A program made the position numbers and the translations under genes. Positions 2,720 to 10,397 of a DNA stretch of 34,729 nucleotides are shown one piece after another (the stretch's first letter is position 1; each line of letters opens with the position of its first letter). The notes under the pieces were generated by a model. It did not search any database, was not told the DNA's origin, and was given only the letters and a program-made list of their open reading frames with translations. Location: NCBI GenBank assembly GCA_030615045.1, contig JAUWZY010000001.1:1-34729 (forward strand), written 5' to 3'. Source of the DNA: Chloroflexota bacterium. Its GTDB lineage: Bacteria; Chloroflexota; Dehalococcoidia; SZUA-161; JAUWZY01.

Positions 2720-3619
2720 TCAACTCCTGCTGTTATCCCTCGGCTCTTTGGGATAGGCGAAGACCATCCGTGCTGCTGCCCTCTGCAGCACCCTGGTGAC
2801 CACGACATCGATCTCAGCGTTGAGGTACCTTCGCCCCGCGTCGACTACGACTACGGTGCCATCGTCGAGGAAGCCAACCCCCTGTCCTGCCTCCTTACCC
2901 TCTTGAATGATGCGCAGCCTCATCTCATCGCCGGCGAGGACCACAGGTCTTATTGCGTTAGCCAGCTCATTAACGTTGAGCACGCGGATTCCCTGAAGTC
3001 CAGCCGCCCGGCTCAGGTTGAGGTCGTTGGTGACAATGGGGCAGCGGAGGCTTTTAGCCAACTGCACCAGCTTAGCATCAACCTCGGGGATGTTCTCGAA
3101 ATCGGTGTCCAGGACTTGAACTGGCACATCCGAGTCCGTTAGCATCCTGACCAGGATGCTAACGCCCCGGTGCCCCCGGTTACGCCGCATCGGGTCCGGC
3201 GAATCGGCGATATGCTGCAGCTCATTGAGCACAAACCTGGGAATGAGCAAGGTCTCGCGGATAAAGCCCGTCTGGCTGATATCGGCGATGCGGCCATCAA
3301 TAATGACATTAGTATCCAAGATGATGCGCCCATCATCACGGTGCGTGTCGCTTGGCGGAGCCGAGGTGGACAGCTGAAGGACATCGCGATTCCTCCCAAT
3401 CCAGCGCCAGAAAGAGGCGATGGCAGCCGGAGTAAACGCAAAGCCCACGGTGGCGCTGAGAAGCGCCACAGACATGCTCCACAGAAGCTCTCCACCTGGG
3501 GCCCAGTTGGCGATGAATAAGCCCAGCGCCCATCCGATAAAGCCCAGGACCACGGTGCCAATAAGCCGAATCACAATGCTAGCAGACATAAGCCCTGATA
3601 AGCCTCTCAGTCTTGACAA
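2720..3619 (-). CDS. membrane-anchored PIN/TRAM domain protein (YacL-like predicted RNase)
   Basis: The N-terminus is hydrophobic (IVIRLIGTVVLGFIGWALGLFIANW..., ...LLSATVGFAFTPAAIASFW). A PIN domain follows (IILDTNVIIDGRIADI...PRFVLNELQHIADS...IVTNDLNL), then a C-terminal TRAM-like beta domain (MRLRIIQEGKEAGQGVGFLDDGTVVVVD...VVVTRVLQ). The TTG start at 3619 lies 5 nt after GGAGGT; the ATG at 3589 is an alternative. Confidence 0.85.
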   Translation of the reverse strand: MSRLRGLSGLMSASIVIRLIGTVVLGFIGWALGLFIANWAPGGELLWSMSVALLSATVGFAFTPAAIASFWRWIGRNRDVLQLSTSAPPSDTHRDDGRIILDTNVIIDGRIADISQTGFIRETLLIPRFVLNELQHIADSPDPMRRNRGHRGVSILVRMLTDSDVPVQVLDTDFENIPEVDAKLVQLAKSLRCPIVTNDLNLSRAAGLQGIRVLNVNELANAIRPVVLAGDEMRLRIIQEGKEAGQGVGFLDDGTVVVVDAGRRYLNAEIDVVVTRVLQRAAARMVFAYPKEPRDNSRS

Positions 3620-3646: not shown

Positions 3647-3689
3647 TCAAACAAAATACCCCTCGGCCAGGTTAGTCCGAAGGGTATCT
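3647..3689 (-). terminator. intrinsic terminator, putative expression platform of riboswitch 1
   Basis: The minus-sense RNA is GAUACCCUUCGG-ACUAACCUGG-CCGAGGGGUAU followed by UUUGUUUG (with the stem's terminal U, a UUUUGUUUG tract). It lies between the aptamer and the PIN/TRAM start codon. Confidence 0.6.
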
Positions 3690-3699
3690 TCGTGATCTT

Positions 3700-3800
3700 T
3701 CGTGGTGGCAACCTAGCCGTCATAGCCTTGTAGAGGCCTTAGACCCTTGGCTTTGCGTCCCCTGATTTCTCAGGGTTTGCCCTTTTCACCGTCTACTATT
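3700..3800 (-). promoter_or_regulatory. c-di-GMP-I (GEMM-I) riboswitch aptamer, copy 1
   Basis: The minus-sense RNA is GGUGAAAAGGGCAAACCCUGAGAAAUCAGGGGACGCAAAGCCAAGGGUCUAAGGCCUCUACAAGGCUAUGACGGCUAGGUUGCC. It carries the hallmark blocks GGGCAAACC, a hairpin capped by a GAAA tetraloop (CUGA-GAAA-UCAG), GGGACGCAAAGCC and a CUAA-containing second hairpin. The order and spacing match my recollection of the Vibrio cholerae Vc2 aptamer. Confidence 0.85.
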
Positions 3801-3815
3801 CAGTTTTTCAGCGCT

Positions 3816-3845
3816 ATTATAACCCCGCTCTCCCCAAAAAGTCAA
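3816..3845 (-). promoter_or_regulatory. sigma70-type promoter driving riboswitch 1 and the PIN/TRAM gene
   Basis: The minus sense reads TTGACT (3845-3840), an 18-nt spacer, then TATAAT (3821-3816), about 20 nt upstream of the aptamer. Confidence 0.6.
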
Positions 3846-9389: not shown

Positions 9390-10397
9390 ATGGGGATAGA
9401 GATGATAGGATATGAACGATACGAAGTGGAGAGAAAAGTAATAGCAATCCTCAAGATACTAAGCGAGTCCCGCGAGCCTCTGGGAGCTAAGGTGATTGCC
9501 CAGCGACTGAAGGATTACGGCGTTGACCTTCGGGAGAGAGCAGTAAGGTACCACCTAAAGATCACGGACGAAAGGGGTCTCACCCAGCTCATAGGAAGAG
9601 ACGGGAGGTTGATCACTGAGTCAGGGATAGAAGAGCTGAAGAGTGCTCTGGTTGGTGACAAGGTTGGCTTTGTTATCAGCAAGATCGAGCTGCTGGCCTT
9701 CCAGACCTCCTTCGACTGGAAAACGCGCAGCGGTCATGTCCCGGTCAATGTTTCCCTTTTCCCCAAAGAACAATTCGACAAGGCTCGCAAGGCAATGAGC
9801 GATGCTTTCAAAGCAGGAATCTGTGTCAGCGATTCAGTAGCTATAGCTCGTGAAGGGGAAAGGTTAGCCGGAGTAACCGTGCCTGAAGGTAAGATCGGCT
9901 TTGCCACCGTATGTAGCATCATAATCAACGGGGCTCTGCTTAAAGCAGGCATCCCCATGGATTCGAAATTCGGTGGCCTGCTCCAAATAAGGAATGAGAA
10001 ACCTTTGCGATTTGTCGAACTCATCGAGTATGCCGGCTCTTCGCTCGATCCCTCGCAGGTATTCATCACCAGTAGAATGACCAGTGTAGGGGAAGCAGCC
10101 AGAAAAGGCGAAGGGAAGGTAGTGGCCAACTTTCGGCAGATACCGGCTTTATGCAGGCCTGTTGCCGAAAAAGTGGTCTCCGCATTAAGAGAAGCCGGGC
10201 TTGGCGGGCTGCTTATGATGGGAGACACAAGCCAGTCGGTGTGCGAAATCCCGGTGGAATTGAATAAGGTGGGCATTATACTCTTGGGCGGCCTCAACCC
10301 AGTGGCTGCCGCTGTAGAAGTCGGCATAGATGTGGAAAACAGGGCTATGAGCGGCGTCCTGGATTACCGGGACCTGGTAGGCTTCTGGCAGCTATAA
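9390..10397 (+). CDS. NrpR-like regulator (N-terminal winged helix + DUF128/NRD domain)
   Basis: ERKVIAILKILSESREPLGAKVIAQRLKDYGVDLRERAVRYHLKITDERGLTQLIGRDGRLITESGIEEL is the wHTH arrangement I recall for NrpR/COG1693 repressors of nif and glnA. One DUF128-like domain follows (VGFVISKIELLAFQTSFD...). This is a recollection-based family call. Confidence 0.65.
   Translation: MGIEMIGYERYEVERKVIAILKILSESREPLGAKVIAQRLKDYGVDLRERAVRYHLKITDERGLTQLIGRDGRLITESGIEELKSALVGDKVGFVISKIELLAFQTSFDWKTRSGHVPVNVSLFPKEQFDKARKAMSDAFKAGICVSDSVAIAREGERLAGVTVPEGKIGFATVCSIIINGALLKAGIPMDSKFGGLLQIRNEKPLRFVELIEYAGSSLDPSQVFITSRMTSVGEAARKGEGKVVANFRQIPALCRPVAEKVVSALREAGLGGLLMMGDTSQSVCEIPVELNKVGIILLGGLNPVAAAVEVGIDVENRAMSGVLDYRDLVGFWQL

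Follow-up and report, generated by a model that had tools for sequence, protein, structure and literature searches.

A c-di-GMP-I riboswitch in front of a truncated YacL paralog in an uncultured Chloroflexota bacterium

The stretch of DNA considered here, 34,729 nucleotides of contig JAUWZY010000001.1 from an uncultured Chloroflexota bacterium (hereafter the window), carries on its minus strand a genuine riboswitch of the cyclic di-GMP type I (c-di-GMP-I) class, which precedes a short gene of the YacL family. The original prediction had read this leader as a c-di-GMP-I riboswitch, an observation that is confirmed here with a match far beyond chance. This standard riboswitch likely governs the gene that follows it, a truncated YacL paralog forming a single-gene unit, in cis and by way of transcription termination. 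The direction of the switch is probably OFF, which is highly reminiscent of the Cd1 riboswitch in the flgB leader of Clostridioides difficile. The RNA itself is an ordinary member of its class and the novelty lies in the gene that it controls; in the literature searched, no c-di-GMP riboswitch is mentioned together with a PIN domain or YacL.

The aptamer extends from position 3791 to 3704 of the minus strand and is matched over its full length (model positions 1-87 of 87) by the Rfam covariance model RF01051, with 80.3 bits against a gathering score of 35 and an E value of 1.9e-14. Two sister copies on other contigs score 79.4 and 80.3 bits with the same model. A covariance-model search is what the original prediction had proposed as a check, and it bears the assignment out; the elements described there are present, and the strand, on which it was silent, is the minus strand. 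The short P1 helix pairs GGUG (3790-3787) with CACC (3707-3704), the first hairpin ends in a GAAA tetraloop (3769-3766), and the second hairpin contains the tetraloop receptor CUAAG (3742-3738) / UAUG (3724-3721). A GNRA tetraloop, which in the case of GAAA is accompanied by a receptor on the other hairpin, has been described for GEMM RNAs (PMC1950547). When this aptamer and a second one in the window, which is described further below, are aligned under the Rfam structure, six pairs are compensatory and 97% of cells are paired, compared with 14-44% for slid partners. In the Vc2 aptamer of Vibrio cholerae G20 and C92 recognise the two guanines of c-di-GMP, and A20 marks binders of cyclic GMP-AMP (cGAMP) (PMC6140456). 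Both aptamers of the window have G at model position 11, and C as the first nucleotide of UGCC near the 3' end. By our own mapping of the Vc2 numbering we take these two residues, G3781 and C3708 in the yacL leader, to be the equivalents of Vc2 G20 and C92, so that the G20-equivalent is G and not A and the C92-equivalent is C. The ligand of the aptamer would thus be c-di-GMP, judging from its sequence. The RNA resembles RF01051 and Vc2 in its two-hairpin aptamer, short P1, GAAA tetraloop with a receptor of the 11-nucleotide type, ligand-contacting G and C, and 5' position before a membrane-related gene. There is no structural difference between them; what differs is the host, an uncultured member of the Chloroflexota, and the regulated gene, a YacL paralog.

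The leader is read on the minus strand from 3845 to 3589 and is composed, in this order, of a promoter, the 88-nucleotide aptamer, a 15-nucleotide linker, a hairpin with a U tract, a 59-nucleotide spacer and an ATG codon. The sigma-70-type promoter (3845-3816) had been predicted as TTGACT-18-TATAAT and is present in this form, with the -35 hexamer TTGACT at 3845-3840, a spacer of 18 nucleotides and the -10 hexamer TATAAT at 3821-3816. It agrees with the consensus at 11 of 12 positions, and shuffled versions of the region yield a mean of 0.3 such sites. Transcription would start near position 3809, about seven nucleotides past the TATAAT box. The GC-rich hairpin with a U-tract had likewise been recognised correctly (3687-3649). 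It has the form of an intrinsic terminator (3688-3649) in which a 5' arm (3687-3677, AUACCCUUCGG) and a 3' arm (3666-3656, CCGAGGGGUAU) form an 11-bp stem around a loop (3676-3667), followed by the U run UUUUGUUU (3656-3649), and the isolated hairpin folds with -20.3 kcal/mol. A simple terminator scanner gave no call for the hairpin at 3687-3656, the loop of which is longer than the 8 nucleotides that the scanner uses. With a promoter, a terminator, and then a gene on the same strand about 60 nucleotides past the U tract, the locus has the layout of a 5' regulatory leader with an expression platform.

Aptamer and terminator have no nucleotides in common, the latter beginning 15 nucleotides past the former, and the minimum free energy (MFE) structure of the leader (-54.7 kcal/mol) includes both of them folded together. 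Because the two elements share no nucleotides and coexist in the MFE structure, the layout is that of an OFF switch, and the OFF direction that had been suggested for this leader is supported by the terminator-type platform as well as by folding. In Cd1 the ligand-bound aptamer and the terminator coexist in the same way, and when ligand is scarce an antiterminator of transient stability forms (PMC9262584). A candidate for such an antiterminator is found in the window. One of its strands is GGCUAGGUUG (3718-3709), which serves in the aptamer as the 3' side of the second hairpin; the other is UAACCUGGCC (3674-3665), which is made up of the terminator loop and the top two nucleotides of the 3' arm. 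The resulting helix of 10 bp is part of the MFE structure of transcripts that stop 2-10 nucleotides before the U tract, both for the window and for the sister copy on contig L007; the duplex has an energy of -15.7 kcal/mol, which is equalled by 29 of 5000 shuffled loop segments. The antiterminator folds also show a mini-hairpin between CGAAG (3692-3688), most of which lies in the variable linker (3703-3689), and CUUCG (3682-3678) in the 5' arm of the terminator. Antiterminator and terminator would be mutually exclusive, as together they would form a pseudoknot with a connecting loop of zero length.

It is proposed that at high c-di-GMP levels the ligand would lock the aptamer and with it the 3' side of the second hairpin (3718-3709), leaving the hairpin at 3687-3656 and its U tract free to form and to end transcription before the gene. 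At low c-di-GMP levels the same strand would be free as the terminator loop emerges and would pair with UAACCUGGCC, aided by the CGAAG:CUUCG mini-hairpin on the terminator 5' arm; this antiterminator would exclude the terminator, RNA polymerase would read through, and the paralog would be made from the ATG at 3589. Aptamer plus terminator would represent the thermodynamic ground state, with which a kinetically favoured antiterminator competes. In silico the layout resembles that of Cd1, with an MFE structure holding aptamer and terminator and an antiterminator MFE structure in the nascent transcript, and the three available copies show no covariation. Like Cd1, the yacL leader has a separate and compatible aptamer and terminator and a predicted competing antiterminator from the 3' part of the aptamer, and in Cd1 the ligand favours termination (PMC9262584). 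Unlike Cd1, which has a dedicated switching strand, the yacL leader would use the aptamer 3' strand itself, predicted to pair with the loop and top of the terminator. A further difference is that Cd1 regulates a flagellar operon, and the switch described here would regulate an unrelated gene for a putative ribonuclease (RNase).

The unit of leader and short yacL gene recurs on two further contigs, L007 and L171, with about 94% nucleotide identity to the window. L007 contains the complete leader and a 289-codon gene whose product is 92% identical, and L171 contains the GGDEF gene that also lies upstream in the window, the leader and the first 27 codons of the short yacL, so that the order GGDEF, riboswitch, short yacL is retained. 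Both promoter hexamers are unchanged in L007, and the -10 hexamer is TACAAT in L171. Across the three copies, 3 of the 128 sites of aptamer and terminator are variable, all in loops, in comparison to 21 of the 98 sites of 5' leader, linker and post-terminator spacer (Fisher p = 3.7e-6). The two variable sites of the aptamer itself (2/88) are both in an apical loop, the terminator stems and the U tract are invariant, and variation is concentrated in the linker (5/15 sites) and the post-terminator untranslated region (14/59 sites). Conserved functional elements set between variable spacers are direct evidence that aptamer and terminator are both under selection in this lineage. The terminator differs at a single position, U3674, which is C in L007 as well as in L171; the change replaces a G.U pair of the predicted antiterminator by G-C and so strengthens it. 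In the linker, A3689G (L171) retains the pair of the mini-hairpin as G.U, and C3692G (L007) loses one pair. A further c-di-GMP-I match of 43 bits on contig L172 (1975-2086) was left unused; it matches the window leader up to GACGCAAAGC and then continues into unrelated sequence. This divergence in mid-aptamer, 70 nucleotides from the contig end, is probably an artefact of assembly, the join lying in the conserved core of the riboswitch.

The controlled gene (3589-2720, minus strand) encodes a protein of 289 amino acids when read from the ATG at 3589, or of 299 amino acids from a TTG at 3619. A look-up for identical sequences gave no entry for either form. In protein searches it retrieves thousands of sequences named 'YacL' or 'PIN/TRAM domain-containing', mostly from Chloroflexota, and its PIN domain is recognised by PF01850 with an E value of 1.3e-7. 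The four acidic residues of the PIN domain (D92, E123, D171 and D189 in the 289-residue numbering) are invariant in 26 sequences, and no column that is invariant in the PIN or C-terminal part of the family is altered in the protein. The AlphaFold2 model (mean predicted confidence, pLDDT, of 78) consists of a helical hairpin (residues 3-29 and 34-71), a disordered linker, a PIN fold and a C-terminal beta-barrel (222-280). The modelled PIN domain can be superimposed onto T. thermophilus TTHA0540 (PDB 3ix7) with a TM score of 0.85-0.88, and Foldseek matches for the barrel include the TRAM-containing enzyme MiaB. Going by the model, the C-terminal domain would be a TRAM-like barrel, and an aligned homolog (P0106) shows a TRAM match (E 3.4e-7) over the equivalent residues.

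Alignment to nine canonical sequences shows that about 65 amino acids are absent, which correspond to membrane helices 3-4 of the canonical YacL of 350-360 amino acids. In keeping with this, the model contains two membrane helices in place of the four of the full YCF81_N domain (PF27675), and the sister copy (P0001) has no PF27675 annotation, unlike nearly all other matches. A search with only the N-terminus and the deletion junction, an uninformative query, returned three weak matches, and P0001 was not among them. The soluble part is 76-78% identical to its closest full-length relatives, which are canonical YacL proteins of Chloroflexota. The protein resembles the YacL of B. subtilis (YCF81_N, PIN and TRAM) and other canonical members in its four-acidic PIN domain, its predicted C-terminal TRAM-type barrel, which aligns over its whole length, and its N-terminal membrane anchor. 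It differs from them by the missing helices, by its occurrence in one narrow lineage under weaker constraint, by its own promoter and riboswitch, and by its position outside the yacL-ispD-ispF neighbourhood: canonical copies are followed by ispD and ispF, and the window gene is flanked by a GAF-GGDEF gene and a radical-SAM gene. The gene had been described as encoding a YacL-like PIN/TRAM membrane protein; the family and the PIN domain stand, and the controlled gene is a truncated, out-of-context YacL paralog and not the housekeeping yacL.

Several points weigh against a functional switch of the kind proposed. The antiterminator occupies just two nucleotides of the terminator 3' arm, and the argument for exclusivity is a steric one. 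The full-length MFE structure is the terminated form even when ligand-free, and therefore the switch must be kinetically controlled if it is to work, which is plausible by analogy with Cd1. Divergence among the three copies amounts to only about 5-6%, with 24 variable sites on which the argument from conservation is based, and with no true covariation for terminator or antiterminator. The window protein itself gives no match to the Pfam TRAM domain (PF01938) at a threshold as loose as E <= 10, and the support is computational throughout. The ratio of non-synonymous to synonymous substitution rates (dN/dS) against L007 amounts to 0.61 for the whole gene; it is lower for the PIN-TRAM part, at 0.39, and higher for the membrane part, at 1.4. 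These values rest on only 13 synonymous and 24 non-synonymous changes (37 in total) and would indicate weak purifying selection on a paralog under weak constraint. Lastly, the adjoining cyclase gene has a premature stop, and the locus may be decaying.

These last points lead to the strongest of the alternatives, in which an intact aptamer heads a decaying unit: no function of the truncated YacL copy would be under selection, and its regulation would be without consequence. Besides the overall dN/dS and the value of 1.4 for the N-terminal part, the loss of two membrane helices, the restriction of the paralog to one narrow lineage and the nonsense codon in the adjoining GGDEF gene, at a position where five close homologs have Gln, all speak for this reading. 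Set against it, both full copies have a complete, uninterrupted reading frame, the four PIN acidic residues and the family-invariant columns are all retained, the PIN-TRAM part has a dN/dS of 0.39, and the aptamer and terminator are far better conserved than the spacers, which is unexpected in a dead locus. Decay of the unit is accordingly regarded as unlikely.

The same OFF switch could also operate through a different antiterminator, as the original prediction had it. AAGGGU (3748-3743), on the 5' side of the second aptamer hairpin, would then have ACCCUU (3685-3680), on the left arm of the terminator, as its partner. The two hexamers are indeed complementary, a bulged C extends the pairing to 8 bp with a duplex energy of -9.3 kcal/mol, and in the leader of the kinase operon described below the best alternative helix does involve the 5' strand of the corresponding hairpin for transcripts of certain lengths. 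In the window, the forced AAGGGU:ACCCUU structure reaches -40.6 kcal/mol compared with -48.5 kcal/mol for the pairing of 3718-3709 with 3674-3665 and -54.7 kcal/mol for the MFE structure, so that as an antiterminator it is 8 kcal/mol worse than GGCUAGGUUG:UAACCUGGCC and 14 kcal/mol worse than the MFE; the equivalent values for L007 are -43.8, -54.8 and -63.0 kcal/mol. It is absent as the MFE structure at every transcript length tested, and the 5' strand of the second hairpin is already paired before the terminator arm is transcribed. The complementarity therefore exists as predicted, and its use as the antiterminator is quite improbable.

A switch acting on translation, or an ON switch, has even less in its favour. 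GCCACC (3709-3704), at the 3' end of the aptamer, is complementary to GGUGGC (3627-3622), which overlaps the GGAGGU motif (3630-3625). Pairing of the two would let the ligand gate the access of ribosomes, and it is present in the MFE structure of long transcripts. GGAGGU had been named as the Shine-Dalgarno sequence of the gene and is found in the remainder of the 5' untranslated region (3648-3590) together with the TTG at 3619, in a poorly conserved stretch that is the most variable part of this untranslated region (14/59 sites). GGUGGC is GGGAGC in L007, GGAGGU is GGAGGG in L007 and GGGGGU in L171, and the TTG that it would serve is TTA in both. The ATG at 3589 and its surroundings are conserved in both sister copies, and canonical YacL proteins align from this ATG. 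Since the TTG and GGAGGU are altered in the sister copies, the ATG is kept and canonical YacL is aligned from it, the start codon is the ATG at 3589; the motif predicted as a Shine-Dalgarno sequence is present, its role with a TTG start is not conserved, and sequestration by GCCACC:GGUGGC is rejected on these grounds. In addition, a terminator located 15 nucleotides past the aptamer and sharing no nucleotides with it is the layout of an OFF switch and not of an ON switch (PMC9262584). Translational or ON control is very improbable. That the aptamer binds another dinucleotide, such as 3'3'-cGAMP or the ligand of the GGC and UAU variants, is scarcely credible: GEMM-I relatives of altered specificity exist (PMC6140456) and a GGC variant (RF03167) is present in the related contig L173, but the best-matching family here is RF01051 and no variant model, the two presumed contact residues are those of a c-di-GMP binder, and GGDEF genes adjoin the riboswitch. 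An OFF switch acting by transcription termination is, with fair confidence, the preferred reading of the leader.

In Chloroflexota the canonical yacL is found in the order recA-recX-rny(RNase Y)-ymdB-PHP-yacL-ispD-ispF-cysS-tRNAs-tuf (L001-L006, L168-L170), with RNase Y and YmdB farther upstream of yacL where the contig reaches that far (L001-L006). Canonical yacL of this phylum thus adjoins genes of RNA decay, and the yacL-ispD-ispF part of the arrangement is the same in Bacillus. About 170 canonical yacL loci were examined, and a riboswitch was found at none of them. A covariance model of our own (R1), built on the three aptamers then available, gave no match at 80 GTDB-species and 80 metagenome loci encoding YacL relatives, nor did an Rfam scan of the 20 closest of these 160 loci. 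R1 detects a divergent GGC-variant member of the class with 67.5 bits as a positive control, and the negative scan of the YacL loci is therefore meaningful. Other short forms of YacL (P0105 and P0107) are orthologs in the canonical PHP-yacL-ispD-ispF context without an R1 match and were set aside.

On the sequences compared, the riboswitch appears to be limited to one paralog in one narrow lineage, and therefore no family-wide link between YacL and cyclic dinucleotides is inferred. Such a link had been raised because yacL was described as lying next to disA in Bacillus, which is correct, the gene order in B. subtilis being radA-disA-yacL (PMC6755099). As a property of the family the coincidence does not hold up: riboswitches are absent from the roughly 170 canonical loci, and DisA is not seen among the called neighbours of the canonical Chloroflexota yacL loci with gene calls. 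In the literature searched, YacL is labelled only as a 'putative RNase' or a 'stress response' gene (PMC4615653, PMC6755099).

The gene upstream of the riboswitch (5113-3995, minus strand) encodes a GAF-GGDEF diguanylate cyclase in which the GGDEF motif is intact and an RxxD site is present. Its GGDEF domain is broken at 4189-4187 by a TAG codon in frame and resumes in the same frame afterwards; the position is Gln in five close homologs (68-93% identical) and Lys in a more distant sixth. Recoding, for example to pyrrolysine, was considered and rejected, as TAG is the commonest ordinary stop codon in the window (11 of 21 open reading frames) and the five homologs have Gln. The simple reading is a CAG-to-TAG nonsense mutation, which would make the cyclase a pseudogene, or a sequencing error.

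Further upstream, a second c-di-GMP-I riboswitch (7657-7434, minus strand) is composed of an aptamer (7583-7498) matched over its full length with 86.2 bits, a promoter TTGACA-18-TAAAAT with an extended -10 element (7657-7628), and a terminator with a 19-bp stem (7482-7442) and a U tract. It heads a unit (7355-5441) encoding a sensor-less histidine kinase, a stand-alone receiver and an OmpR-type regulator, which closes at a strong terminator (5393-5362, minus strand). This riboswitch is probably also an OFF switch, with an antiterminator complementarity that is less distinctive, being reached by 276 of 5000 shuffles. A segment of 3.2 kb (8474-5268) that contains a CoA-binding gene, the second riboswitch, the kinase and both regulators is not found in the sister contigs L171 and L172 (about 94-95% identity), which have about 230 nucleotides instead. 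A second segment (12202-9441), with an NrpR-like regulator and part of a glutamate-synthase-like gene, is likewise not found in L171 and L172. Both segments are indel polymorphisms among close relatives, and the order of GGDEF, riboswitch and short yacL is stable. The NrpR-like gene (9390-10397, plus strand) encodes NrpR regulatory domains with an N-terminal winged helix and adjoins the gene with the glutamate-synthase domain. NrpR is the nitrogen repressor of methanogenic archaea, and it is unusual in a bacterium.

The related metagenome contig L173 carries a riboswitch of the c-di-GMP-I-GGC variant (RF03167, 2437-2640) with a promoter and a terminator, which has 80% nucleotide identity to the second riboswitch of the window. 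The operon behind it encodes a 94-residue protein, a MEDS protein, a GAF/PAS protein and a GAF-GGDEF homolog that is 75% identical to the cyclase of the window, so that on L173 the cyclase itself lies behind a riboswitch. The second riboswitch and the L173 leader resemble the yacL leader in their family, in their arrangement of promoter, aptamer and terminator and in their neighbourhood of c-di-GMP signalling genes. They differ from it in that they control signalling operons and that their flanks cannot be aligned with those of the yacL leader; the cassette of the second riboswitch is, moreover, absent from the sister contigs. Another related contig, L176, has a NiCo riboswitch (1150-1237) upstream of a cation-efflux gene, which is an ordinary arrangement.

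The value of the finding is limited by a routine RNA from a very large family, by its occurrence in one narrow uncultured lineage and by the weak purifying selection on the paralog. It is a tentative and rather doubtful proposal that c-di-GMP directly gates a membrane-tethered PIN-TRAM ribonuclease and that RNA turnover is an output of c-di-GMP signalling. If it is true, a recently duplicated and shortened YacL would serve as an RNase specific to low c-di-GMP. The chromosome would then contain a small c-di-GMP module, comprising a riboswitch-controlled kinase and two response regulators, a GAF-GGDEF cyclase and a riboswitch-controlled YacL paralog. YacL is a widespread membrane PIN/TRAM protein, usually encoded with ispD and ispF and, in Chloroflexota, near RNase Y and YmdB. 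A copy behind a second-messenger riboswitch points to low c-di-GMP as a concrete condition, open to testing, in which the cell would need a protein of this kind, and the two-helix paralog represents a naturally simplified YacL for biochemistry. If the proposed control is borne out, the uncharacterised YacL family would for the first time have a regulatory clue to its function.

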